Position numbers and translations under genes: made by a program
In this document: positions 24,036 through 51,724 of the stretch, in pieces
Numbering within the stretch: the first letter of the stretch is position 1
Layout of the letters: each line of letters starts with the position of its first letter
From: Candidatus Omnitrophota bacterium
GTDB taxonomy: Bacteria; Omnitrophota; Gorgyraeia; JABMRG01
Reading direction: 5' to 3'
Assembly (NCBI GenBank): GCA_028716165.1
Contig: JAQUQI010000002.1
Coordinates: forward strand, 10,431 to 74,430
Length of the DNA: 64,000 bases
Notes under the pieces: generated by a model
Told to the model about the DNA's origin: nothing
Databases searched by the model: none
What the model saw: the letters and a program-made list of their open reading frames with translations, nothing else

Positions 24036-24836
24036 TTGAATATCATTTTAATTATTGTTCTCGTGTTTGCTCTTGTTTTTGCGTTCTGGTGTTTTCTTGA
24101 CAAAGGTAATAATACGCGCCAGCGTCTTTTGCATGAAGAAATGCTTTCAAAGGAAGAGGCGCTGAAGGAAAAAGACCAGGAACAATTGACAAGATTGCAG
24201 GATGACGTGGACGGACTGCAGAAGAGTATTGATAATCTGATGAACAGGTCCGCTTCGCTTGAGTCCGAACTTCTTTCCGCCAAACGCCAGCTGGAATCAG
24301 CCGAAAGAGATATCAGGCAGTGCAGGGGCCGGATGCTTACGGCCAGGCAGGAGACGGATAGAATAAATACCAATATTGCCGACCTGAAAAACAGAATAGC
24401 CGTTCTTGTTAAACAAACCCTGGATGCCGATCAAAAGCTTATGATCCTTATGAAAACAAAAGAGGCTTTGGCAGACCAGTTGGAGTCCTATAAGTCTGCC
24501 GCCCGCCAGCAGCCCGTAAGCCAGCAGTATGAAGAGCAGAATATCCGCGAGCGGGACCTTGATACCGTGACAGAGACTGTCATAGACAATCCGGCGCTTC
24601 CTTCAGGAGAAGTCCTGACCGTTAACAGGGAATTCGCGTTTTTGGTGACAAACCTTGGCAAATCATCAGGGATAGAAGAAGGCTTGGTCTTGGATATCAG
24701 GCGCGATAATAAAAGCCTTGGCCGTTGCCGCGTTGAGACGGTAAGGGAGAACATATCGGCCGCCGCCCTTGTTGATAAAGACAACCTTTCGCAGATAAGG
24801 GCCGGGGACAAGGTCTTTGTAGAGCAGGAGATATAG
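24036..24836 (+). CDS. Hypothetical membrane-anchored coiled-coil protein with a C-terminal small beta-rich domain
   Basis: N-terminal TM helix (IILIIVLVFALVFAFWCFL), about 130 aa of heptad-rich sequence, and a C-terminal ~70 aa block that is conserved in the next ORF. Probable TTG start. Confidence 0.5.
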   Translation: MNIILIIVLVFALVFAFWCFLDKGNNTRQRLLHEEMLSKEEALKEKDQEQLTRLQDDVDGLQKSIDNLMNRSASLESELLSAKRQLESAERDIRQCRGRMLTARQETDRINTNIADLKNRIAVLVKQTLDADQKLMILMKTKEALADQLESYKSAARQQPVSQQYEEQNIRERDLDTVTETVIDNPALPSGEVLTVNREFAFLVTNLGKSSGIEEGLVLDIRRDNKSLGRCRVETVRENISAAALVDKDNLSQIRAGDKVFVEQEI

Positions 24837-24838
24837 CA

Positions 24839-25603
24839 ATGGATAAAAATAAAGGATTAGCGGCAGGCCTTTTGCTTCTGGCCGCGCTGATTACGGCGCT
24901 GGGTTTATTCTTGTTTTCAGGTTCAAAAAAAGAATTAGCCTGCGCCAATTCTATTAAATTGCGTATTGATGCCGTAGTTGAAGAGCGCGCGCGCATAACG
25001 GGAAATATAGATATTCTCAATGGCCAGCGGGAAAGGCTCGTGCAGGATGTCCAGGATTACGGAGAAAAAATCAAAGCCCTTGAGAATGAGATACCTTCTG
25101 TTACGCAGGAAAGGGACAAGGCTCTGGCCATGCTTAGCGATGTGGAAAATGAGTTAGCGGAATTGAATCGTGCCCTTGAAGAAACAATTTCACAAGAAGC
25201 GGCCTTAAGGGATGAGCTGGAGAATGCCGGATTGACGCATAGAGACTTGCAGGACGCTCTTGAGTTTGCCGGCAGTGAGAAATTGGAACTTGAAGAAAGC
25301 CTGAAGGTCTGTATTCAACAGTCCCAAGGCGTTCAACTGCCCAAGATAATTGTCAAAGTCGCCAGGCCGTTAAACGGTGAAGTTGTGGAAGTAAGCGAAA
25401 AATACAATTTTTGTGTGATAGATTTAGGCAGTGGACAGGGGGTCAACAGCGGCGATACCCTGGAAATATACCGCGATAACCGTTTCATCGCCAAGGCGCT
25501 TGTTGAAAACGTTTATGATGACATGTCAAGCATAATCGTATTAGACCAATGGCGCGGTGTGAGCATATATACAGGTGATGCGGTAAAACTTCATAAAGTC
25601 TGA
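24839..25603 (+). CDS. Hypothetical membrane-anchored coiled-coil protein, paralog of the upstream ORF
   Basis: TM helix (GLAAGLLLLAALITALGLFLF), a coiled coil, and a C-terminal domain alignable with the preceding ORF (NFCVIDLGSGQGVNSGDTLEIYRDN...GDAVKL versus FAFLVTNLGKSSGIEEGLVLDIRRDN...GDKVFV). AGGAGA SD. Confidence 0.5.
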   Translation: MDKNKGLAAGLLLLAALITALGLFLFSGSKKELACANSIKLRIDAVVEERARITGNIDILNGQRERLVQDVQDYGEKIKALENEIPSVTQERDKALAMLSDVENELAELNRALEETISQEAALRDELENAGLTHRDLQDALEFAGSEKLELEESLKVCIQQSQGVQLPKIIVKVARPLNGEVVEVSEKYNFCVIDLGSGQGVNSGDTLEIYRDNRFIAKALVENVYDDMSSIIVLDQWRGVSIYTGDAVKLHKV

Positions 25604-34221: not shown

Positions 34222-34677
34222 ATGGCAGTATCCGGTAAAAAAGGTTTTAGGTTTGTTAAAATTATGGTAATTGCCGGTATTGCGGCCCTGTTGTCAGCCG
34301 CAGTTCTTTTGGGTATTATGAAGTCAAAGCAGAGTATTAATGAAAAAAATGCCATAGCGTCATTAGCGCTGATACGTTCAGCCATGGAGAGTTTTCGCGC
34401 CGGGCAGACACCCCGGCTATATACAAATGCCGTTAATCTAAACGTTTTGTCAACAGCCAATCCACCCTATATTGGTACCGCGCTTGGTAGCGGGACAAAA
34501 CAGGGATATAATTTTCGTTTAGCCGATGTTACGGCTTATGCTTATACTATCCAGGCAAGGCCTGTCATGCCAAGGGTTACGGGCGGCAGGTCTTTTGTCC
34601 TTGATGAGACAGGCCTGCTAAGGGCCAGGCAGCAGTCCGATTGGCTTAAAAAAGGCCAAGGTGAGATTATTAAATAG
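34222..34677 (+). CDS. Hypothetical prepilin/pseudopilin-like protein
   Basis: N-terminus KKGFRFVKIMVIAGIAALLSAAVLLG resembles a class-III (type IV pilin) leader plus hydrophobic helix, but has Lys rather than Glu at +5. Strong SD (GGAGG) and its own TTGACA-17-TATGCT promoter. Confidence 0.3.
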   Translation: MAVSGKKGFRFVKIMVIAGIAALLSAAVLLGIMKSKQSINEKNAIASLALIRSAMESFRAGQTPRLYTNAVNLNVLSTANPPYIGTALGSGTKQGYNFRLADVTAYAYTIQARPVMPRVTGGRSFVLDETGLLRARQQSDWLKKGQGEIIK

Positions 34678-41462: not shown

Positions 41463-42686
41463 ATGACATTGCGTAATTTAAAATTAAGTATATTTCTCGC
41501 GGCCAAAGACATGCTCAATAATCTTGGCTCGCTTGTATTTGTATCAGCGGCGCTGGGTTTCTTATTTGCCAATGTATTATTTTCAAGGTTTATGCTCTAT
41601 GGCTTTGAAAAGAGCATAGGAAGCCTTATACCGAAGGTTAGCGGTAATATGTATGCCACGCCCTTGAGAGGGCAATCCTATATATTTGACACGCAGAGGG
41701 TCCTGTCTTCAATAGGCTTAAATACTACGATAGGCGAGATGAGCCCTGTGCTTGAGATGCCTTGTGTTTTGGAATATAAGGGTTCCAGGATAGTTACCAT
41801 GGCCTGGGGGCTTGAATTCGGCGAGCAGGTCATGGATTTACAAAAACATATCGTTGAAGGCAGTTATTTTTCAGGCCCTGATTCAGAAGAGATAATATTG
41901 GGTAAGATACTGAAAAGGCGTTTCAAATTAAAAATACCCGTTACTGAAGAAATAACGCTTGGAGATTCCGCCAAAGGTATATTTATCAAGGAATATAATA
42001 TAGATAAATTCAATAAAGAGGTCTATAAAGATAAGTACGTGAAGATAACAGGAGTTGCCGATTTCAGAGATTATATAGCCAATAACAGCATTTTCATACC
42101 CTTGCAGACTTTAAGAAACGTTACTACGCTTCAAAACCGTTCATCAAGCGTGTTCATACGGCTCAAAGATGATATGAAAATTGACGAAGCAGGGGTCAAA
42201 CAGTATAAGCCTTATAATCTTGACGTGGAGTTAAAACACTGGAAAGACCGTGATGACTACGGAACTGACGACCTTGTCTACGGCTTTAACCTTATAAGCA
42301 TTATAACCTTTGGCGTGAGTATCATTTGCGCGGCTATATTAGTCGCGTTTATAGTTTTCTATAATACGCAAAAAAAACGAAGGACAACAGGCATACTCCG
42401 GGCCATAGGCATAAAGGGAAGGATATTTTTAACGTTCTTTATTATAGAAGGCGTTCTTTTCGCTGTGATAGGAGTTGTCACGGGGACGGCCCTTTATTAT
42501 TTACTGCAAACGTATCTTAAGGCGCATCCCATAATAATGCCTTTTGGAGATCTGTATCCTATGTTTGAGATAAACAGCTATATTTATGCTACCGCGCTTT
42601 TTTTAGTTGTGTCTTTTATGGCCAGCGTTTATTACGCGGTAAAAAGCGGTAAAGAAAATATAATAAAAGTAATAAGAGGCGATTAA
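41463..42686 (+). CDS. ABC transporter permease, FtsX/MacB/LolCE family
   Basis: TM1, a ~230 aa extracytoplasmic domain, and three C-terminal TM helices. The stop overlaps the start of the ATPase gene. GC noticeably lower than core genes. Confidence 0.75.
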   Translation: MTLRNLKLSIFLAAKDMLNNLGSLVFVSAALGFLFANVLFSRFMLYGFEKSIGSLIPKVSGNMYATPLRGQSYIFDTQRVLSSIGLNTTIGEMSPVLEMPCVLEYKGSRIVTMAWGLEFGEQVMDLQKHIVEGSYFSGPDSEEIILGKILKRRFKLKIPVTEEITLGDSAKGIFIKEYNIDKFNKEVYKDKYVKITGVADFRDYIANNSIFIPLQTLRNVTTLQNRSSSVFIRLKDDMKIDEAGVKQYKPYNLDVELKHWKDRDDYGTDDLVYGFNLISIITFGVSIICAAILVAFIVFYNTQKKRRTTGILRAIGIKGRIFLTFFIIEGVLFAVIGVVTGTALYYLLQTYLKAHPIIMPFGDLYPMFEINSYIYATALFLVVSFMASVYYAVKSGKENIIKVIRGD

Positions 42687-43393
42687 TGGTTAAAAAAGGG
42701 CCCAATTCCAAAAACAAGGTTATAATAAGCATAAAGAATCTGAAGAAAGACTATCATCTCGGTAATACCGTTGTCCAGGCGTTAAAAGACGTTAATCTTG
42801 AGATAAAAAGCGGCGAGTTTTCAATATTATTCGGCCCCTCGGGCAGCGGCAAAACCACGCTTTTAAACTTGTTAGGCCTTATAGATGTGCCTACCTGCGG
42901 CACGATTGTGCTGGACGGCCACGACACCGTTTCGCTTAATCGTATCCGGCGGGCGGAATTCAGGCTGAATAATATAGGCTTTATTTTTCAGAAATATTAT
43001 CTCCTTGATGAACTCACGGCGCTTGAAAATGTATTTTTGCCCGCTATTGCCAAGGAAGGGTATTCATCCCAGCTTTTGGCAAAGGCAAAGAGCATGCTTG
43101 AACTTGTCGGATTGAAGGAAAGGATGAGGCACAGGCCCGCCTATCTTTCAGAAGGCGAAAAACAGAGGGTAGCGGTTGCCAGAAGCCTCATTAACAGCCC
43201 CGCCATACTTCTCTGCGATGAGCCTACCGCCAGCCTTGACGCTGATAACGGGAGGGTGATACTTGACCTTTTGGCAAAGATAAACAAAGAAAGTTCTGCT
43301 ACCGTATTTCTTGTTACTCACGATGACCGCCAGCTCAAATACGGTGATAAGGTGATACACATCGCCGACGGGATGGTGCAAAAAGGGGAATAG
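42686..43393 (+). CDS. ABC transporter ATP-binding protein (MacB/LolD-like)
   Basis: Walker A (GPSGSGKTT), signature motif (LSEGEKQRV) and Walker B (ILLCDEPT). Confidence 0.85.
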   Translation: MVKKGPNSKNKVIISIKNLKKDYHLGNTVVQALKDVNLEIKSGEFSILFGPSGSGKTTLLNLLGLIDVPTCGTIVLDGHDTVSLNRIRRAEFRLNNIGFIFQKYYLLDELTALENVFLPAIAKEGYSSQLLAKAKSMLELVGLKERMRHRPAYLSEGEKQRVAVARSLINSPAILLCDEPTASLDADNGRVILDLLAKINKESSATVFLVTHDDRQLKYGDKVIHIADGMVQKGE

Positions 43394-43396
43394 GCT

Positions 43397-44629
43397 TTGG
43401 ATGATAAGAGGGTTGTAATTACCGGAATCGGATTAGTTACCCCAATTGGCATAGGCAAGGATATTTTTTGGGAAAATTGCTTGTCCGGAAAATCCAATGT
43501 TAAAAAAATAACCGCTTTTGATGTCAGCGAATATAACTGCAAGATAGCCTCCACGATAGATAGTTTTGACCCTGCCCGATATATGGATAAAATAATCGCA
43601 AGGCGCTCCGATAAATTCGCGCAGTTCGCCATTGCCGCCGCTTCTATGGCCATGGAAGACAGCCGTTTAAGCAATCCGGACCCAAAATACACAGGTGTTT
43701 GCATAGGCACAGGGCTGGGGGGCATGGTGTTCGCGGAAACGCAGATTGTTAATATCATAAAAGACGGAAATGGCGCGGTCAATCCTGTTTCTATCCCTAA
43801 GATTATGCCTAACTCTGTGGCAAACCAGATTGCCATTGTTCATAATGCCCAGGGCCCGAATCTTACTGTTTGCACAGCATGTTCGTCAGGCACGCATAGC
43901 ATAGGCCAGGCGTTTGATATTATCCGTCAGGGCAGAGCCAAGATTATGATTTCAGGAGGAGCGGATTCGCCTGTGATGAGATATAATTTTTTAGGTTTTG
44001 ATAAATTAAGCGTTATGAGCAGAAGAAATGACAGCCCGGAATCCGCCTCAAGGCCTTTTGATAAAGACAGAGACGGTTTTGTCATGGGAGAAGGGGCCGC
44101 TGTCCTGATACTTGAATCTTTAGACCATGCGCTCGCACGAAAGGCCGATATATATGCCGAGATCAAAGGTTATTCCATGACGTCAGGCGCCTATCATATT
44201 GTTATGCCGCGTCCTGATGCCAGCGATATAGCAAGGGCCATGAGAATATGCTTAAATGAGTCGCTTGTTATGCCAAAAGACGTTGATTATATAAACGCCC
44301 ACGGCACGGCTACTATTGCCAATGACAAGGCGGAAGCCAAAGCGATAGCCAAGATCTTTGGAGAACATGCCCAGCGCATACCGGTAAGTTCTACCAAATC
44401 CATGATAGGCCATACCTTAGGGGCGGCAGGGGCTATTGAAGCGGCCGTGTGCGCGTTGACGATATCGTCTGGTAAAATACACCCTACGGTGAATCTTGAA
44501 ACACCCGACGAGGATTGCAAGCTTAATCATGTTACGAAGAAACATTTTAAGCACGATGTAAGCATTGCTCTTTCAAATTCATTTGGGTTTGGCAACAATA
44601 ACGCGTGCCTGCTTTTTTCAAAAGTATAA
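43397..44629 (+). CDS. Beta-ketoacyl-[ACP] synthase, FabF/KAS-II-like elongating ketosynthase
   Basis: Active-site Cys (CTACSSG), His (NAHGTAT) and His (IGHTLGAAG), the C-H-H triad of elongating KSs. A 3-nt gap after the ABC ATPase stop suggests an operon. There are no fabD/fabG/fabH neighbours. Confidence 0.85.
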   Translation: MDDKRVVITGIGLVTPIGIGKDIFWENCLSGKSNVKKITAFDVSEYNCKIASTIDSFDPARYMDKIIARRSDKFAQFAIAAASMAMEDSRLSNPDPKYTGVCIGTGLGGMVFAETQIVNIIKDGNGAVNPVSIPKIMPNSVANQIAIVHNAQGPNLTVCTACSSGTHSIGQAFDIIRQGRAKIMISGGADSPVMRYNFLGFDKLSVMSRRNDSPESASRPFDKDRDGFVMGEGAAVLILESLDHALARKADIYAEIKGYSMTSGAYHIVMPRPDASDIARAMRICLNESLVMPKDVDYINAHGTATIANDKAEAKAIAKIFGEHAQRIPVSSTKSMIGHTLGAAGAIEAAVCALTISSGKIHPTVNLETPDEDCKLNHVTKKHFKHDVSIALSNSFGFGNNNACLLFSKV

Positions 44630-44649
44630 GAGAAAGGACACTATTTTTA

Positions 44650-44913
44650 ATGGATAATAGTAAGAAATTTTCAAAATGCGAAATAGCCGAAGAATTAAAA
44701 AAAATTATTGCAGATATAGTAAATGTAGAAAAAGAAGCGATTGATTTTACAACAAAATTGTTGGAAGATCTTGGAATGGATTCTTTTGCTGTAGCCGAGA
44801 CTATGTTTTTAATCCAAGAAAAATTCGGAGTCACCATAGCTCAAGAAGATATACTTAAAGTAGATACTTTTAATAGTCTTGTAGAAACGTTGGATAAGAT
44901 TTTAAATGGTTGA
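44650..44913 (+). CDS. Acyl carrier protein
   Basis: 87 aa acidic protein with the phosphopantetheine-attachment motif LGMDSFAVAE (an Asp-Ser-Phe variant of DSL). Start at the ATG at 44650 after AAAGGA. Very AT-rich. Confidence 0.7.
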   Translation: MDNSKKFSKCEIAEELKKIIADIVNVEKEAIDFTTKLLEDLGMDSFAVAETMFLIQEKFGVTIAQEDILKVDTFNSLVETLDKILNG

Positions 44914-44957
44914 GGGGTATAGAATATTATTAGTCAATGTGAGGCAACCATAAGATG

Positions 44958-44986
44958 CCAGGGTGAGGCCCTGGTATTTTGTTTTT
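44958..44986 (+). terminator. Putative intrinsic terminator or attenuator between the ACP gene and the HMGR-like gene
   Basis: Stem CCAGGG (44958-44963), loop TGAGG, stem CCCTGG (44969-44974), followed by TATTTTGTTTTT. Confidence 0.35.
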
Positions 44987-45006
44987 AATTTATATTGGAG
45001 GTACCA

Positions 45007-46200
45007 ATGAACGCTGCAATAGATAATAATAAAAAAAGTTGTAATGATAATATGTTGAGTAATTTTTCTGAATTGAAAAAAATTCAAGTAAGACGTGACC
45101 AGCTACAGAAAAATACAAATATGGTTTTATCAGAGATTACAAAAACACATTTTGATTTATCACATGTTAGCAATTATATTGAAAACATGATAGGTGTATG
45201 CAATGTTCCTTTAGGAGTAGCGGGTCCGATACAAATAAATGGAGATTTTGCTAATGGTAAATTCTATGTTCCATTTGCAACTACACAATCAACTCTAATA
45301 CGTTCTTATGATAGAGGTATGAAGGTTCTTACTGCATCAGGTGGAGTCAATACAAAGATCATTAAAGATGAAATTCACATTTCACCAGTTTTCTGCTTTT
45401 CGAATCTGAAAGAAGCAAAAAATTTCTATAATTGGTCAATTGAGAATTTTGAACTGCTTAAAAAAGAAGCGGAAAGTGTTACTACCCATGGCAAGTTATT
45501 ACGTATAAAACCTGTAATATTAGGAAGAAAGGTTATATTAACGTTATATTTTTCAACGCAGGATGCTATGGGGTTGAATATGATTGTTATAGCAGCGGAT
45601 AAGTTGTGCCGCTATATTTCTAAAAATATACAAGTCAGAAAGTATTATTTACGTTCAAATTATTCAGCCGACAAGAAACCGTCATATTTGAATTTTATTG
45701 AAGGTTATGGAAAAACAGTTGTTGTCGAAGCTACTATAGCAAAACAAATTATAGAAGGTTATCTACAGACATCCGCAAAAGAACTTTATGATTTTTGGAT
45801 TACAAGTGTTATCTGCGGTATTCAATCTGGATTGATGGGTTTGAACGCTCATTTTGCTAATGGTCTATCTGCTATTTTTTTAGCTTGCGGACAAGACATT
45901 GCCAGTGTTGTTAATGCTTGCTTAGGCATTGGAACTATTGAAATTGAAGATAATGGAGATTTGTATATTTCTGGGCGCATATCGTCATTACCTATAGGTA
46001 CTGTAGGTGGTGCTACCGATTTAGGCACACAAAAAGAATGTTTGCAAATTATGGATTGTTTTGGTAACGGAAAAACTAATCGTTTGGCTGAGATTATATC
46101 AGCTACTTTAGTTGCAGGAGAGATTTCTATTGTTTCAGCAATTGCGACTGGAAATTTTGCTTCGGCACATATCAATGCTAGGTTAAAAAAGGGAAAATAA
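45007..46200 (+). CDS. Soluble class-I HMG-CoA-reductase-fold protein with non-canonical active-site residues
   Basis: Class-I HMGR blocks: ENMIGVCNVPLGVAGP, TQDAMGLNMI, ACGQD, PIGTVGGAT, and a C-terminal AGEISIVSAIATG. Strong GGAGG SD. However TTQS replaces the catalytic TTEG, and GN replaces the catalytic GH. Confidence 0.75.
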   Translation: MNAAIDNNKKSCNDNMLSNFSELKKIQVRRDQLQKNTNMVLSEITKTHFDLSHVSNYIENMIGVCNVPLGVAGPIQINGDFANGKFYVPFATTQSTLIRSYDRGMKVLTASGGVNTKIIKDEIHISPVFCFSNLKEAKNFYNWSIENFELLKKEAESVTTHGKLLRIKPVILGRKVILTLYFSTQDAMGLNMIVIAADKLCRYISKNIQVRKYYLRSNYSADKKPSYLNFIEGYGKTVVVEATIAKQIIEGYLQTSAKELYDFWITSVICGIQSGLMGLNAHFANGLSAIFLACGQDIASVVNACLGIGTIEIEDNGDLYISGRISSLPIGTVGGATDLGTQKECLQIMDCFGNGKTNRLAEIISATLVAGEISIVSAIATGNFASAHINARLKKGK

Positions 46201-46203
46201 GAC

Positions 46204-47481
46204 GTGATTAAATCTAGTGCTGAAGTTATAATTGTTGGTTCTGGAGCAGCCGGCTCAACTATTGCTAAGGAACTGGCCGGTCGCGGTAGAAAAATTATTA
46301 TAATTGAAAAAGGTAAATTTGCAGGTTATCTTGGCAACGAGATTAGGGCCAGCGCGTACTACGAAGGTTCTCCTTTGCTCGTTAGGTCTAAGAGCGGTGT
46401 GATGTTCCATTATACAAAAAATCTTGGTGGTAGCACAGTTTTTAGTTGTGGAAATGCTGTTAGAGGTTCACTAGATATATTTTTACGGTTTGGTATAGAT
46501 TTACGTCGCGAGCTTGCGGAGACTGAAGAGGAATTATCGGTAATGCCTGTAGATAAAAAATTAATTGGCCAGAAAGGTACCAAAGATTTTTATGATGCAG
46601 CTATTAATTTGGGTTATAAGATTGATTATATGCCGAAATTTATGAAAAAAGGGATGTGTTCTCTGTGTGGCAAATGCGTGCTAGGGTGTCCAAATAATGC
46701 TAGATGGACTGCTGTTGATTATGTTGATTTTGCTATTGGGAAAGGTGCTCTTGTTGAGCACGCCGTTGTAGAAAAGGTTATTATAAAAAATAATAAAGCC
46801 ATTGGTGTTTTAGCTAAACAGGGAAAAAAACAGGTAACTATTTATGCTGATAAAATCGTGCTTGCGGCAGGAGGGCTTAATTCACCCGTGATACTACAAA
46901 AGTCTGGCTTATCTGCTGGTAAGAAATTGTTTTGTGATTTGTTCAATGTAACATATGCTGTGTCATTGAAAGATGGAATGTTTCGTGATTTAAGTATGTC
47001 TTTAGTTGATATGGAATTTTTTAAAAATGATGGTTTTATAATATCTCCATTTATGGATCCTATTATTTTATTTCTTATCATTTTTAATAAGTTTTTGCCA
47101 TTTTATTTATTGAAGTATAAAAATGTTGTTGGCATAGAAGTTAAGATTAAGGATGATATGATTGGATCGGTTTCATCGGATGGGCGAATCCAAAAAATAG
47201 TTACTGCCGATGATTCAAAAAAAATTAGTAAGGGTGTAGAAATTGCTAAGGATATTTTAAACCATATGCCTATTGATAAAAGGACGATTAATACAACTAT
47301 ATTGCGAGGCGCGCATCCTGGCGGTACTTCTGCTATTGGGGAAGTTGTTGATTGTAATTTGCAAACAGGGGTGAAAGGGTTATATGTATGTGATGCTAGT
47401 GTATTACCAGAAGCGTTAGGCCTGCCACCAATAATAACGCTAATTGCTTTATCTAAATGGTTTGTTAAAACTCAATTTTAA
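46204..47481 (+). CDS. GMC-family-like FAD-dependent oxidoreductase with an inserted CX2CX2CX3CP ferredoxin-type motif
   Basis: N-terminal FAD Rossmann (IIVGSGAAGSTIA...IIIEKG). C-terminal GMC-type block (RGAHPGGTSAIGEVVDCNLQTGVKGLYVCDASVLP). Cys cluster CSLCGKCVLGCP at aa 152-163. GTG start 3 nt after the HMGR-like stop. Confidence 0.6.
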   Translation: MIKSSAEVIIVGSGAAGSTIAKELAGRGRKIIIIEKGKFAGYLGNEIRASAYYEGSPLLVRSKSGVMFHYTKNLGGSTVFSCGNAVRGSLDIFLRFGIDLRRELAETEEELSVMPVDKKLIGQKGTKDFYDAAINLGYKIDYMPKFMKKGMCSLCGKCVLGCPNNARWTAVDYVDFAIGKGALVEHAVVEKVIIKNNKAIGVLAKQGKKQVTIYADKIVLAAGGLNSPVILQKSGLSAGKKLFCDLFNVTYAVSLKDGMFRDLSMSLVDMEFFKNDGFIISPFMDPIILFLIIFNKFLPFYLLKYKNVVGIEVKIKDDMIGSVSSDGRIQKIVTADDSKKISKGVEIAKDILNHMPIDKRTINTTILRGAHPGGTSAIGEVVDCNLQTGVKGLYVCDASVLPEALGLPPIITLIALSKWFVKTQF

Positions 47482-47485
47482 AATT

Positions 47486-49537
47486 ATGCCATATTTTGCA
47501 ATATCAGCTATTACAGCGTCATTGATTAATATCATTATCGGCACATTTGTTCTATTAAAAGACAGAAGATGCCTGCAGAATAGGACATATTCAGGTGTTT
47601 CATTTGCTGTCGCAATATGGTGTCTTGGATTAGCTAATATGGTTAATTCGACTAACAGCTGCGAAGCTTTTTTTTGGGTAAGATTTTTACATATAGGAGT
47701 TTTTTTAATCCCCCCACTTTATTTTAATTTTATTTGTTCTTTGTTGCATATTGTTGACTATAAAAAAAGTTTACTTATTTCCATGTATATTATTTCAACT
47801 TGTTTTATTTTGTTTAATTATGGGACACGTTTATTAATTTCTGATGTTGTTCCAAAATATAGTTTTAATTATTATGCTACTGCTGGATCTGTGTATTTTT
47901 TATATATATTGTATTTAACTGGTTTTATTATATATTCAATTATTCTTATTATGAAACATTATAAGAGTTTTTCTGCTTTACGAAAAATGCAGTTCAAGTA
48001 TGTAATAGTTGCTTCTATCGTAGCGTTTATAGGGGGGTCAGATACTTTTTTACCAATGTTTGATTTGCCAGTCATGATTAATGGTATTTTTTTATTGCCA
48101 CTTTTTACGCTTATGGCTGCTTATGTTATTGTTAAGCATAGATTTTTGGACATTGAAATCATAATCCGCGAGACGGCAATATTCGCGGGTATATTCGGTT
48201 TTTCAATAGGCCTGTTTATGCTGGCGATTATAGCGGGCGAACAATTCCTCAAGCCTTATATAGGCGATAACCGTTGGATCGTCCCGGCATTATCACTCTT
48301 ACTTGTCACGTTTGTTATCCGCCCAATTGAAAAAATTATATACAATGTTGCCGGTAGGATATTATTTCGCAGAAAGTATGAATATCAAAAGACCCTTCAG
48401 GACGCCGCTGAAGGCATGTCTAAGATCCGTGACCCAAAGAAATTGTTGAGCCTGATAGTGCATATAATATCAGCTAAGCTCAAGCTTGTTAATACTGCTG
48501 TTTTTCTCTTTGAAAGCGGATCCGCTTCGTACGTTCTGAAGGCTTCAAGAGGGGATATGGGGAGCTCTCCGGCAAGCTTAAAGCCCGAAAACGCTCTGAT
48601 AACATGGCTTTGCGAGAAGAAAAAACCGCTTGGCCTTGATGATGTTCAGAAATGGATAAACAATTTTAACCAGAAATACATGCCCGGCGTGCTTAAGTCC
48701 GATCTGGCCCAGATAAGGGACACTATGCTTAATCAACGCGCGGCCTTGAGCGTGCCTTGTTTTTTTAGAAACGAGCTTTTAGGCGTGCTTATACTTGGAG
48801 AGAAAAAAAACGGAGATTTTTTTTCCCAGGATGATATAGATTTATTCAGCGCTCTATCCAATGAAGCGGCCATTGCTCTCAAAAATTCACAACTCTATTT
48901 TGAGATAGACAGAAGGGCTTTTGAGCTTGAGAACCTTTACAAGAGAGAGCACAGGCTGTTTATGCATTCATCCGTGGCGTTTGCCGCGGCAATAGATGCC
49001 AGAGATCCTTATACCCACGGCCATTCGCAAAGGGTCACAAATATAAGCCTGGTGATACTTGATTTTATGGGAGCTATGGATGAGATAGATAAAGATGCTT
49101 TCTTCAGGCATAGGCTGCAAATAACAGGGGTCTTGCATGATATAGGAAAGATAGGCGTACCCGATGATATATTGCATAAACCGGCGCAGCTTACGCCCGA
49201 AGAGAGAAAAGAGATAGAGAAACACCCCGTATTGGGGGCGGAAATTGTATCTCATATTGCCGGGCTAAGAAACCTTATCGGAGGCATCAAATATCATCAT
49301 GAAAGATATGACGGCAAAGGCTACCCCGAAGGGCTTAAGTCGGATGAGATACCTCTGATGGCAAGGATTATTTCCGTTGCCGACACTTATGATGCCATGA
49401 CAAGCGACAGGCCTTATAGGAAAGGCCTCCCGTTTTTGACGGCAAGAGACGAAATACAAAGAAACGCGTCGGCGCAGTTTGACCCTTATGTGGTAGCGGC
49501 TTTTTTAAAAGCATTTGAACAGGGTAAGATAGAATAA
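47486..49537 (+). CDS. Membrane sensor HD-GYP phosphodiesterase (7TM receptor-like domain, GAF, HD-GYP)
   Basis: Polytopic N-terminus, a GAF-like middle region, and an HD-GYP domain (HGHSQR, LHDIGKIG, HHERYDGKGYPEGL). Roughly the first 225 codons are strikingly AT-rich and the remainder is at host GC. Confidence 0.8.
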   Translation: MPYFAISAITASLINIIIGTFVLLKDRRCLQNRTYSGVSFAVAIWCLGLANMVNSTNSCEAFFWVRFLHIGVFLIPPLYFNFICSLLHIVDYKKSLLISMYIISTCFILFNYGTRLLISDVVPKYSFNYYATAGSVYFLYILYLTGFIIYSIILIMKHYKSFSALRKMQFKYVIVASIVAFIGGSDTFLPMFDLPVMINGIFLLPLFTLMAAYVIVKHRFLDIEIIIRETAIFAGIFGFSIGLFMLAIIAGEQFLKPYIGDNRWIVPALSLLLVTFVIRPIEKIIYNVAGRILFRRKYEYQKTLQDAAEGMSKIRDPKKLLSLIVHIISAKLKLVNTAVFLFESGSASYVLKASRGDMGSSPASLKPENALITWLCEKKKPLGLDDVQKWINNFNQKYMPGVLKSDLAQIRDTMLNQRAALSVPCFFRNELLGVLILGEKKNGDFFSQDDIDLFSALSNEAAIALKNSQLYFEIDRRAFELENLYKREHRLFMHSSVAFAAAIDARDPYTHGHSQRVTNISLVILDFMGAMDEIDKDAFFRHRLQITGVLHDIGKIGVPDDILHKPAQLTPEERKEIEKHPVLGAEIVSHIAGLRNLIGGIKYHHERYDGKGYPEGLKSDEIPLMARIISVADTYDAMTSDRPYRKGLPFLTARDEIQRNASAQFDPYVVAAFLKAFEQGKIE

Positions 49538-49603: not shown

Positions 49604-51724
49604 ATGTGTTATTACAAGCTGCATTATATAGCAGGTTCCGTGTTTACGCTTCTTATTACCCTTCTGCTGGGAAGCCTGATCTATTTTAGAGGCAGAAGGG
49701 GCGAGGTTGTGAGAAGTTACTACCTGTTAATGCTTTCCATCGCGGAATTTTCATTGTGCACTTTATTGTTCTGCTTGTTTAATGATAAAGACTATACCCT
49801 GTTTTTCGCCAGGGCCTCTTATATAGGGGTTTCCTTTGTGCCCATATTTTATTTTCATTTTATTATAAAACTTATGGGGTTGACAGAAAAGATCAAAAGG
49901 GTCCTGTCTGCCGGTTATATTCTGGCGGTTATTTTTTCCGGGTTGAGTTTTTCACCGTTAATCGTTAAAAGTATATCGTTCAAGCTGGGCCTGAATTTTA
50001 ATGATCCCGGCGTGCTTCATCCCGTATTTATGTTGTTTTTTGCCGGGTTCCCCGCTTACGCGCATTATCTCATGGGCAGGTCTATCGGCAGGTTAAGCGA
50101 TATAGGCAAACGCCAAATGAAGTATGTCACGATAGCCGGCATATGCGGCCTAAGCGGCGGCAGTTTAATGTTTTTTACGGTTTACGGTGTATCTATTCCC
50201 ATAATAGGGCCTATGGCCTTATACTTTGTCGCTCTTGCCAATCTCTTTGTTGCTATAGCAACGTATGTGGTACGCCTTATGGGTGTTGAGGTCATAAGGA
50301 GAAGGACGCTGATATTTTCAATTCTCTATGGAGCGAGTGTCGGCAGTTTTGTAGCGTTTGTTTTTATCCTGCAAAGACATTTATCAGCTTCTTTTAATGT
50401 GAACAGATGGATACTGCCTGTGGCCGCGGTTTTTATTTTGACAGTTTTTATAAGGCCGTTAGAAAAATTTCTTGCCGGATTTACCGACGCGTTTTTATAC
50501 CAGCGCGGATACGACTATATGCTGGTTTTAAGAAACGTCGCCAAAGGTATGACGCTTATAACCGATACAAGAAAACTCCTGAACCTTATGGTAAGGTTTA
50601 TATCAAAAGAAGTAAGGATAACCGGCAGTTCGGCTTATATTTTCAATAAAACGCTGAATTCATATATCAGGGAAGTCCGCAGAGGTTTTAAAGGCCAGCA
50701 GACCCTGGAAAGAGTGGATGCCGACAACCCTCTTGTTAAATGGCTTATGGAAAAAAGAGAGCCTATAAGTTATGAAAGTGTTTTAAGCTGGATCCAGGGC
50801 GACAGGATTTTTCCGCAGAGGATTATTCTTAAAAAGACTCTTGACCATATCCGGGTGACCATGGAAAAGACCGGTGCCGTATTATGCGTTCCGAGTTTTT
50901 TAAGAGGCCAGATGATCGGTTTTATAGTGCTTGGCCCTAAGCTATCGGGCAATATCTATACGAGCGATGATTTTTCACTTTTATCCACCCTGGCCAATAA
51001 TGCGGCTATTGCCTTTGAGAACGCGCGCATGTATGAAGAGCTTACGGAAAGAATATATAAATTAGACGCTTTATATAAAGAAGAGCACGCGTTGTTTTTG
51101 GACGCGGCCTCGGCATTTAGCTTTGCTATTGATTCCAAGGACGGGTATACCTATGCCCATACCCGCAGATTAAGCAATTACGCGATGGCTACGGCCAAGG
51201 AACTTGAAAAACTTTTGCCGTATATTAACTTTAATGATTCTTTTTACGAGACGCTTCATATCGCGTCACTTTTACATGATGTGGGCAAGATAGGTATACC
51301 GGACAGGATACTAAAAAAACGTTCGGCCCTGACAGACGAAGAAAAGGAAAAATTCAAAGAGCATGTTACTATAGGCCAAAATATCTTAAAGCCCATTAAA
51401 GAAATAGGAGACAGCTTTGATGTTATACGGCACCATCATGAAAACTTTGACGGCACAGGCTATCCCGACGGATTAAAAGGCAATGCTATACCCATGGCGT
51501 CCCGCATTATAGCGGTTTGCAATGGCTTTGACATTATGACTTCAACCTATCTGGAAGGCGAGCCTGTTACCAGACAGCAGGCCATAGAAAAGCTTAAGGA
51601 AAAAAGCGGGAGCTTTTTTGACCCCGTGATAGTTGACGCTTTTATTGCCGCTTATGCAAACAAGGAATATGCCGGATTTTTTCTTGATATACCCACTGAT
51701 AGCGTTAAAAACCGGACATTTTAA
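49604..51724 (+). CDS. Membrane sensor HD-GYP phosphodiesterase, paralog
   Basis: Same architecture as the upstream gene (AHTRRL, LHDVGKIG, HHHENFDGTGYPDGL). GC is uniform and host-like. Confidence 0.8.
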   Translation: MCYYKLHYIAGSVFTLLITLLLGSLIYFRGRRGEVVRSYYLLMLSIAEFSLCTLLFCLFNDKDYTLFFARASYIGVSFVPIFYFHFIIKLMGLTEKIKRVLSAGYILAVIFSGLSFSPLIVKSISFKLGLNFNDPGVLHPVFMLFFAGFPAYAHYLMGRSIGRLSDIGKRQMKYVTIAGICGLSGGSLMFFTVYGVSIPIIGPMALYFVALANLFVAIATYVVRLMGVEVIRRRTLIFSILYGASVGSFVAFVFILQRHLSASFNVNRWILPVAAVFILTVFIRPLEKFLAGFTDAFLYQRGYDYMLVLRNVAKGMTLITDTRKLLNLMVRFISKEVRITGSSAYIFNKTLNSYIREVRRGFKGQQTLERVDADNPLVKWLMEKREPISYESVLSWIQGDRIFPQRIILKKTLDHIRVTMEKTGAVLCVPSFLRGQMIGFIVLGPKLSGNIYTSDDFSLLSTLANNAAIAFENARMYEELTERIYKLDALYKEEHALFLDAASAFSFAIDSKDGYTYAHTRRLSNYAMATAKELEKLLPYINFNDSFYETLHIASLLHDVGKIGIPDRILKKRSALTDEEKEKFKEHVTIGQNILKPIKEIGDSFDVIRHHHENFDGTGYPDGLKGNAIPMASRIIAVCNGFDIMTSTYLEGEPVTRQQAIEKLKEKSGSFFDPVIVDAFIAAYANKEYAGFFLDIPTDSVKNRTF

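Follow-up and report, generated by a model that had tools for sequence, protein, structure and literature searches.

What is the role of a gene for a protein like hydroxymethylglutaryl-CoA (HMG-CoA) reductase that is encoded among genes for acyl-chain chemistry and signalling rather than in a mevalonate pathway? The question is raised by a locus of a Candidatus Omnitrophota bacterium (assembly GCA_028716165.1, contig JAQUQI010000002.1, positions 10,431 to 74,430), and the whole stretch of 64,000 nucleotides that was analysed is referred to here as the window. Few enzymes have been studied as intensively as HMG-CoA reductase (HMGR), and to our knowledge no characterised homologue of it has a different substrate. 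The protein in question, designated HMGRL (HMGR-like protein), may be a neofunctionalised class-I HMGR paralogue acting as a thioester reductase on acyl chains held by an acyl carrier protein (ACP), coupled to a cognate seven-transmembrane (7TM) phosphodiesterase of cyclic di-GMP (c-di-GMP). This is the reading that we favour, if tentatively. The gene is located as follows.

45007..46200, + strand: HMGRL, 397 amino acids, class-I HMG-CoA-reductase fold, member of the 'I-R-Y' clade and of its Gln sub-clade (both described below).

The reading frame starts at an ATG with GGAGGT ahead of it, and no membrane segments were predicted in the product, marking it as soluble. HMGRL matched the Pfam family HMG-CoA_red (PF00368) over residues 26-390 (3e-107, 359 bits). 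The top sequence match in the PDB was the archaeal class-I HMGR 6hr7 of Methanothermococcus (1e-87, about 40% identity), followed by plant and human enzymes. An AlphaFold (AF2) model built on 35 relatives had a pLDDT of 83 and a pTM of 0.85, and its superposition by Foldseek gave TM scores of 0.79–0.80 to 6hr7 and human 1dqa and of 0.77–0.80 across the 6hr7/human HMGR complexes. The motif blocks IENMIG..PLGVAGP, DAMGLNM, CGQD, GTVGG and AGEIS are all present. An initial annotation of the locus had described a soluble class-I HMGR-fold protein of 397 residues with the blocks ENxIG..PxGxAGP, DAMGxNM, CGQD, GTVGG and AGE(L/I)S, and on fold and motifs alike it is borne out by the Pfam, PDB and structural matches. 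The identical protein was found in one NCBI 'Candidatus Omnitrophica' metagenome-assembled genome (MAG) and in two independent assemblies, and is therefore not an assembly artefact.

Residues were mapped by HMMER alignments of HMGRL to 6hr7 and to human HMGR, which are gap-free at the key sites, and are given in human numbering. The catalytic network of HMGR consists of Glu559, Lys691, Asn755 and Asp767, and it has been argued that the final protonation is possibly performed by the Lys and not by the Glu (PMC9500038). This network is incomplete in HMGRL, as Lys691, Asn755 and Asp767 are present (K223, N285 and D297) and Glu559 is replaced by Gln94 (codon CAA, 45286-45288). Lys692, which together with Lys691 forms part of a DKKP cis-loop, is kept as Lys224 and His752 as H282, while His866 is replaced by Asn383 (codon AAT, 46153-46155) and H388 corresponds to human H871. 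The Lys at the catalytic position was invariant in 120 of 120 homologues. K223, K224, N285, D297 and the DAMG and GTVGG motifs were invariant among the 35–120 relatives compared, and Lys691, Asn755, Asp767 and the two cofactor motifs stayed so over relatives of just 40–50% identity.

The initial annotation had rested its case on three catalytic substitutions, and these fared differently. The exchange of the catalytic Glu for Gln94 was confirmed, as was the retention of the Asp of CGQD and of the Asn of NAH; the Gln is distinctive, yet only of a sub-clade of 25 sequences and not of the family as a whole. The supposed exchange of the catalytic Lys for Ile in an SKG motif was a mis-assignment, since that position is human K662, which is Ile in 6hr7 too, and the catalytic Lys is K223. 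The change of the AAGH His to Asn383 is real but says little. In about 18 of 71 otherwise canonical archaeal/eukaryote-type HMGRs, among them those of Sulfolobales, Desulfurococcales, Thermoproteota, Methanomassiliicoccales and Micrarchaeota, the His866 column holds E, D, V, T or Q, and loss of this His is therefore not diagnostic. The His five residues past that column (H388 in HMGRL) was near-universal in the same 71 sequences.

At the Glu559 column, Glu was found in 106 and Gln in 14 of the 120 nearest homologues. With metagenomic loci added, the 25 sequences with Gln grouped in one near-exclusive sub-clade of a neighbour-joining tree, with mutual identities of 42–76%. Conservation over this range indicates that Gln is a stable selected state and not a sign of decay. 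A clade with Gln substitutions, raised as a possibility in the initial annotation, thus exists within the larger clade described below. One branch of the sub-clade (P0008, P0009, P0011, P0014, P0035, P0038, P0067, P0080 and P0111 in alignment A2) also has Asp in place of the downstream His equivalent to human H871 ('FAxAD'), so that both C-terminal histidines are gone.

More telling changes, absent from the initial annotation, were found in the part of the active site that holds the acyl group. In HMGR, Arg590 and Ser684 make polar contacts to the HMG moiety and Lys735 forms a salt bridge to its terminal carboxylate (PMC9500038). A column-by-column comparison was made between homologues linked to HD-GYP genes and 35 canonical archaeal and eukaryotic sequences. 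The columns of Arg590, Ser684 and Lys735 were 100% R, S and K in the canonical set, and these contacts are absent from HMGRL. The substitutions were as follows.

Arg590: Ile/Val in the clade, I125 in HMGRL.
Thr589: His/Asp in the clade, H124 in HMGRL.
Ser684: Arg in the clade, R216 in HMGRL.
Gly685: Ser in the clade.
Cys688: Ser in the clade.
Arg702: Tyr in the clade, Y234 in HMGRL.
Lys722: Asn/His/Gln in the clade.
Lys735: Thr/Leu/Ser in the clade, T266/S267 in HMGRL.
Leu867: Phe in the clade.

Because Lys691, Asn755 and Asp767 are retained and the HMG contacts replaced, the HMGRL family is one with a conserved hydride-transfer machinery and a rebuilt acyl pocket. Consistent with this, HMGRL scored 341.9 bits against the NCBIfam equivalog model TIGR00533 (HMG_CoA_R_NADP), below its cut-off of 441.8. 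The 201 sequences with the 'I-R-Y' signature were monophyletic with respect to the 71 canonical ones in the neighbour-joining tree, which is crude and is used only for the split between canonical and I-R-Y sequences and for the Gln sub-clade. The clade is spread over at least five bacterial phyla, with hosts among MAGs of Omnitrophota, Nitrospirota, Planctomycetia, Elusimicrobiota, Myxococcota-like bacteria and Actinomycetes, and its proteins are publicly annotated as HMG-CoA reductase. The 'D-type' homologues of Bacteroidales were rejected as members, as they keep R590 and R702 and resemble ordinary HMGRs. Archaeal MAGs hold homologues inside or beside the non-canonical clade, in Methanosarcinales (L050, 7225-10074, and L073, 1981-3489; signature E-K-Q-R-N-D, one of them 949 amino acids) and in Promethearchaeota (L054, 5760-7010; signature E-V-R-Y). 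These may be extra paralogues in archaea that need a genuine HMGR too.

The genes that surround HMGRL in the window are the following.

41463-42686, + strand: FtsX-type permease (LolCDE/DevCA-like), contiguous with the ketosynthase side.
42686-43393, + strand: ABC ATPase (LolCDE/DevCA-like), contiguous with the ketosynthase.
43397..44629, + strand: FabF-type beta-ketoacyl-ACP synthase II (ketosynthase, KS), Cys-His-His triad intact (TACSSG, HGTAT, GHTLGAAG).
44650..44913, + strand: dedicated ACP, 87 amino acids, phosphopantetheine serine motif LGMDSF, GC content 0.29.
44950..44982, + strand: terminator-like or attenuator hairpin of 15 pairs followed by a T-run, inside the ACP-HMGRL spacer.
46204..47481, + strand: short GMC-family FAD oxidoreductase, 425 amino acids, with a ferredoxin-like CxxCxxCxxxC insert at residue 152.
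47486..49537, + strand: first sensor, HisKA_7TM-GAF-HD-GYP, frame open from 47444, HDIGK and HHERYDGKGYP intact.
49604..51724, + strand: second 7TM-GAF-HD-GYP paralogue, HDVGK and HHENFDGTGYP intact.

The upstream KS and ACP and the downstream flavo-FeS oxidoreductase had been recognised in the initial annotation, in agreement with this list; the two sensor genes had not. It is equally correct that no other mevalonate-pathway gene lies in the window: neither mevalonate nor methylerythritol phosphate pathway genes were found among its approximately 55 open reading frames (ORFs), and in about 40 related loci no mevalonate genes were found beside the HMGRL homologues. The scores of the ACP did not reach the cut-offs set for housekeeping AcpP models. 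Both sensors matched Pfam HD_5 (7e-36 and 2e-34), and since their HD and GYP motifs are intact they are predicted c-di-GMP phosphodiesterases. The 7TM domain of the second is 27% identical to that of the first and of normal GC content (0.43); no enzyme stands out as a partner of this paralogue, and its 7TM domain falls outside the group of GMC-linked sensors described below. It is uncertain whether the permease and ATPase (41463..43393) are part of the system.

The gene context of relatives was surveyed in 80 loci from genomes and 80 from metagenomes, and in 12 more retrieved by looking up the exact protein. A HisKA_7TM protein was encoded by the next gene in 34 loci, which hold I-R-Y members other than the Actinomycete 'R-type', at distances of -7 to +63 nt and often with an overlap of 4 or 8 nt. 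The hosts of these pairs include Omnitrophota, Nitrospirota, Planctomycetia and Elusimicrobiota, and only a handful of non-R-type loci with sufficient downstream sequence had no HisKA_7TM gene. In most loci the sensor has an HD-GYP output, but that of L166, L170 and L171 is HisKA-HATPase, and because the output varies it is the 7TM(-GAF) sensor that is the constant partner. HisKA_7TM is listed solely as a sensor domain, with no known ligand. About 13 loci besides the window showed the order KS-ACP-HMGRL, and KS and ACP genes lie ahead of the HMGRL gene in L002, L017, L083, L084, L087, L122, L130, L136 and L166-L169.

Many of the relatives are fused to signalling domains. PilZ was found on 22 and a receiver domain (REC) on 5 of the 120 nearest homologues; the PilZ domains are N-terminal and carry the RxxxR and (D/N)xSxxG motifs, and HMGRL of the window itself has none. 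The KS is likewise fused at its N-terminus, to REC in L083, L084 and L166 and, in L087 and L122, to a PilZ domain that has the RxxxR and NxSxxG motifs. In L171 a REC-HMGRL protein, a 7TM-GAF kinase and a REC-ACP are encoded, with ketoreductase, ACPS and KS genes close by. Neighbours of other members include an SDR-type NAD_binding_4 thioester reductase (L002), a 4HBT thioesterase (L170), a LuxD-like acyltransferase-methyltransferase (L172) and a FadL-type porin (L004), and P0073 and P0098 are hotdog-fold fusions. On the 3' side of the KS-ACP-HMGRL-sensor cassette of L166 (11107-13807) lie genes for a glycosyltransferase like monogalactosyldiacylglycerol (MGDG) synthase, a lipid-A-type (LpxL family) acyltransferase and a GT2 glycosyltransferase, which may be a glycolipid branch that consumes the product.

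A second line of evidence for a tie between HMGRL and the sensor came from the composition of the cassette and from its comparison with L168, a locus in a related Omnitrophota MAG that is syntenic with the window (L21/L27, obg, proBA, nadD, FtsX, ABC, KS, ACP, HMGRL and 7TM-GAF-HD-GYP). One further feature is thereby delimited.

44500..48100, no strand: low-GC, hyper-diverged block of ACP, HMGRL, GMC oxidoreductase and sensor 7TM, defined by GC content and the L168 comparison.

The GC content of the block is 0.29–0.39 against 0.456 +/- 0.020 for 44 other window genes. Nucleotide similarity to L168 ends at 44828 and restarts at 48147 with sharp break-points. Amino acid identities to L168 were as follows.

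FtsX permease: 82%.
KS: 80%.
ABC ATPase: 78%.
Obg: 71%.
GAF-HD-GYP part of the first sensor: 70%.
ACP: 48%.
HMGRL: 47%.
7TM domain of the first sensor: 37%.

ACP, HMGRL and the 7TM domain have thus been replaced in a mosaic fashion between flanks that are conserved, and the break falls inside the sensor gene. The low GC content of these three recurs in L166, L168 and L169, which with the window makes four genomes, and is not shared by the KS, the output domains or the 7TM domain of the second sensor. The 7TM domain of the first sensor groups with HMGRL-linked 7TM domains, and it is nearest not to that of L168 but to that of L083, the locus that also holds the nearest HMGRL. The simplest reading would be that ACP, HMGRL (together with the GMC enzyme) and the membrane domain of the sensor were replaced as one allele, and one-piece replacement would in turn require a specific match of the enzyme, or of its product, with the 7TM domain. 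The same pattern of mosaic replacement is seen in the agr and comQXP pherotype loci. Two other accounts of the pattern were rejected. A by-product of membrane-protein composition does not fit the GC content of the second 7TM domain, nor that of the soluble ACP and HMGRL, which are also low. That HMGRL and the 7TM domain are simply fast-evolving fails as a general rule, as in L096, L159 and L116 the output domain is less conserved than either.

The GMC oxidoreductase that follows HMGRL in the window extends the theme. An orthologue with 44% identity and the same Cys motif is found in the Omnitrophota cassette L166, and the closest relatives of HMGRL (P0002, 76%) and of the GMC enzyme (P0122, 66%) are encoded on one 2.7-kb contig. 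This GMC family has many members, some of which are PilZ-GMC fusions. A GMC gene is directly followed by a HisKA_7TM-GAF kinase gene in L166 (167-3662), L173 (6034-11774) and L174 (5813-11482), and in the last two it is preceded by a gene for a (PilZ-)START/Polyketide_cyc-Shikimate_DH protein. The L173 GMC cassette holds a FadL/TodX-type porin and that of L174 a PlsC-type acyltransferase. The Omnitrophota MAG loci L169 and L174 have a common upstream flank (aconitase, IDH, LDH, lipoamide dehydrogenase, LplA and a lipoyl protein), beyond which alternative cassettes occupy the same site: KS-ACP-HMGRL-7TM in L169 (6548-11777) and acyltransferase-START/Shikimate_DH-GMC-7TM in L174 (5813-11482). 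A general rule emerges in which a lipid-type redox enzyme is followed by a HisKA_7TM sensor.

Taken as an acyl-ACP thioester reductase, HMGRL could work as follows. The FabF-like KS would extend an acyl chain on the dedicated ACP, and HMGRL would reduce the ACP-held 3-oxo- or 3-hydroxy-acyl thioester. Such a substrate would be an HMG analogue with a hydrophobic alkyl tail in place of the carboxymethyl arm, in keeping with the disappearance of R590 and K735. Its reduction would yield a lipid aldehyde or alcohol (a 3-hydroxy-aldehyde or 1,3-diol, for instance), which might be oxidised further by the GMC/Fe-S flavoprotein. In the Gln sub-clade the reaction may halt at the aldehyde, or Lys223 may serve as the sole acid (cf. 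PMC9500038). By recognising the lipid product or by docking the enzyme, the 7TM domain would govern the hydrolysis of c-di-GMP; in relatives, feedback by c-di-GMP or by phosphorylation would act through the PilZ or REC domain fused to the HMGR-like enzyme, KS, ACP or GMC protein. Substrate, product, catalytic direction and the sensing of the product by the 7TM domain are what we infer here from genes and alignments. What is new in this proposal is the substrate pocket, the partners and the regulation; the fold and the type of chemistry are already known. The initial annotation had offered re-tooling for an ACP-bound thioester alongside a pseudo-enzyme. The former is supported, mostly by evidence that it did not hold (pocket loss, equivalog score, clade monophyly and KS-ACP synteny), and the latter is disfavoured by the invariant catalytic and cofactor residues.

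A wider scheme can be drawn in which the locus is one example of an undescribed and widespread lipid signalling circuit. In this scheme an HMGR-derived synthase, together with KS and ACP, would make a hydrophobic alcohol or aldehyde signal with HisKA_7TM as its receptor; the output, c-di-GMP hydrolysis or a phosphorelay, would feed back on PilZ- and REC-fused enzymes; the synthase-receptor pair would diversify in the manner of pherotypes as a replaceable cassette; and parallel cassettes would have GMC/Fe-S enzymes in place of the HMGR-like one. We regard this scheme as possible rather than probable, and less so than the function proposed for HMGRL itself.

Several observations weigh against the favoured reading. 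Many clade members have no adjoining KS or ACP, among them the forms fused to PilZ and every 'R-type' member of Solirubrobacterales, and because of this acyl-CoA may be the ancestral substrate and dependence on an ACP lineage-specific. The KS of the window could be the ordinary FabF of the cell, since it passes the equivalog cut-off of housekeeping FabF and is 80% conserved. The new Arg at the Ser684 site (Arg216), which is nearly invariant in the clade, could still bind a carboxylate, so that an HMG-like or dicarboxylic acyl group is conceivable. The Gln at the Glu559 site may cripple or alter the chemistry in the Gln sub-clade. PilZ and REC fusions mark enzymes as regulated outputs and do not show that a product is sensed. 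Finally, the mosaic pattern comes from one informative genome pair, the window and L168, and would be accounted for equally well if the enzyme docked on the 7TM domain and no ligand were involved.

The likeliest alternative, which we nevertheless consider unlikely, is signal-controlled remodelling of membrane lipids. KS, ACP and HMGRL, with or without GMC, would be pure outputs that make or modify a structural lipid, for example a long-chain diol or alcohol for glycolipids, and the 7TM domain would detect an external or membrane cue instead of the product, with the enzyme docked on it. The PilZ and REC fusions suit such outputs, and 7TM histidine kinases adjoining REC-enzyme fusions resemble ordinary two-component pairs. 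The glycosyltransferase and acyltransferase genes into which L166 runs on, the ABC/FtsX exporter upstream in the window and in L168, and the PlsC-like acyltransferase of a GMC cassette also point this way. The glycolipid and export genes are however not conserved between loci, hypervariable low-GC cassettes are unusual for structural-lipid genes, and the replacement of ACP and HMGRL together with the 7TM domain alone of the sensor needs a specific match of the enzyme or its product with that domain.

It is distinctly improbable that HMGRL is a non-catalytic co-sensor, a pseudo-enzyme that binds acyl-CoA, acyl-ACP or NAD(P)H and reports to its 7TM-GAF-HD-GYP or histidine-kinase partner. The replacement of Glu559 and the loss of His866 in the window protein, the disappearance of the downstream His as well in one sub-lineage and the close, often translationally coupled pairing with the sensor would be expected of one. 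Against this, approximately 200 sequences, most of which keep the Glu, show no variation in Lys691, Asn755, Asp767 or the two cofactor motifs, and the Gln sub-clade is old and conserved over its 25 sequences in a manner typical of a working active site. Moreover, PilZ and REC fusions normally control enzymes, and the final protonation may fall to the Lys instead of the Glu (PMC9500038).

Slightly more improbable still is the reverse, catabolic direction, in which a hydrophobic alcohol or aldehyde, possibly imported by FadL, would be oxidised to an ACP or CoA thioester that feeds the KS, with the 7TM domain reporting exogenous lipid. HMGR chemistry is reversible, as established for the class-II degradative HMGR with mevalonate as substrate. 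FadL/TodX-type outer-membrane channels adjoin two cassettes (L004 and L173), and an enzyme of the GMC alcohol-oxidase type is encoded within the same cassette as HMGRL. FadL genes are however rare among the loci, the class-I lineage and the NADPH-type motifs point to biosynthesis, of which they are typical, and the loss of His866, to which handling of the thiol(ate) is ascribed, would impede the making of a thioester no less than its cleavage. Lastly, an ordinary if divergent HMG-CoA reductase giving mevalonate, with KS, ACP and sensors as unrelated neighbours, fits the public annotation, the strong Pfam score and the absence of His866 from some genuine archaeal HMGRs, but is very improbable in view of the replaced R590, S684, K735 and R702, the score under the TIGR00533 equivalog cut-off, the separate clade, the lack of mevalonate genes in the window and a KS-ACP and 7TM synteny kept across phyla.

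A comparison with known systems places the proposed acyl-ACP thioester reductase and its sensor more closely. Class-I HMGR (EC 1.1.1.34) has the same fold, ENxxG, DAMGxN and GTVGG motifs, Lys691, Asn755 and Asp767 and, in archaeal enzymes, a soluble core of about 400 amino acids. HMGRL differs from it by the Gln at Glu559, the replaced Arg590, Ser684, Lys735 and Arg702, the sub-cut-off score and its clade, and in the loci examined HMGRL homologues pair with 7TM sensors, KS/ACP and PilZ/REC, never with mevalonate genes. SDR-type reductases of carrier-protein thioesters (LuxC/FAR 'male sterility' proteins and terminal R domains of polyketide synthases and nonribosomal peptide synthetases) use NAD(P)H for a 2- or 4-electron reduction of the kind proposed here, and KS and ACP adjoin both; their Rossmann-SDR fold is unrelated to that of HMGR, and L002 has both SDR-type and HMGR-like genes, so the two are not simply interchangeable. 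In the DSF/Rpf system of Xanthomonas (RpfF, RpfC and RpfG), and also in CqsA/CqsS and PhcB/PhcS, a lipid signal derived from acyl-ACP is tied to HD-GYP or a membrane histidine kinase, as would be the case here. The synthases there are a crotonase, an aminotransferase and a methyltransferase, in contrast to the HMGR fold, and unlike in DSF/Rpf a HisKA_7TM sensor and HD-GYP are joined in one polypeptide in the window, where production and sensing of a signal are inferred.

In agrBDC of staphylococci and comQXP of Bacillus, the biosynthetic genes and the membrane part of the receptor have diverged and the output part and flanks are conserved, as between the window and L168; their signals are peptides, the proteins are unrelated, and the pattern described here is that of one genome pair together with a common low-GC signature. 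Enzymes regulated through PilZ, such as the cellulose synthase BcsA and Alg44, resemble the HMGRL relatives in which PilZ is fused to a catalytic domain, which would imply control by c-di-GMP. HMGRL of the window differs in having no PilZ, and HMGR-like proteins, KS and GMC were not found as PilZ partners in the literature searched. No publications linking HMGR homologues to PilZ, HD-GYP or c-di-GMP were found ('PilZ' queries mostly matched an author name), nor anything relevant on HMG-CoA-reductase-like bacterial proteins or on mevalonate in Omnitrophica. This agrees with the statement in the initial annotation that no system with such an arrangement has been described.

If correct, acyl-ACP reduction by HMGRL would be the first case of an HMGR fold recruited to other thioesters and would provide a candidate source of ligand for the orphan HisKA_7TM domain. 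HMGR-like proteins, FabF-like KS and GMC oxidoreductases would join the outputs controlled by PilZ and receiver domains, linking c-di-GMP and two-component signalling to acyl-chain chemistry. If the clade is as it appears, I-R-Y genes are misannotated as 'hydroxymethylglutaryl-CoA reductase', and mevalonate-pathway capacity would be wrongly ascribed to uncultured phyla when their metabolism is reconstructed. With three to five genes the cassette is compact enough for heterologous expression and lipid analysis to be practical, although the hosts are uncultured.

The spacer between ACP and HMGRL (44914-45006, 93 nt) is strongly structured (-32.2 kcal/mol, z = -4.0), and the outer stem of the structure extends to the GGAGG ribosome-binding site of HMGRL. 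The hairpin is absent from L168, where the spacer is 15 nt. A known riboswitch was rejected, as scans of the spacer and of the entire window gave no Rfam match for it; the structure may act as an attenuator or be a scar left when the cassette was replaced.

The Solirubrobacterales 'R-type' members have the same remodelled pocket without a 7TM partner. Their context was read from Pfam-checked genes only, ORF calling being unreliable at the high GC content of Actinomycete loci. HMGR-like genes of this type lie near a single-chain, eukaryote-style acetyl-CoA carboxylase of about 1,900–2,070 amino acids (L003, 12281-18484, - strand; L018; L025), a further type of neighbour is GH65, and in L007 (11129-12535) the gene stands directly ahead of a wax-ester synthase/DGAT. 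This neighbourhood hints at fatty-alcohol production.

The remaining genes of the window are housekeeping genes: queA, tgt, secDF, recJ, otsAB, recG, pta, ackA and a class-I tRNA synthetase; lgt, aroA, mreBCD, pbp2, rodA, rne, obg, proBA and nadD; and dnaG, rpoD, glnA, icd and gdh. Across the 64 kb no Rfam family, tRNAs included, reached its gathering score. Amid the housekeeping genes lie three ORFs without a Pfam match at E <= 1e-5 (24036-24836, 24839-25603 and 34222-34677, of 266, 254 and 151 amino acids). Nearly all ORFs of at least 150 amino acids are on the + strand, and the few others overlap + strand genes and look spurious.

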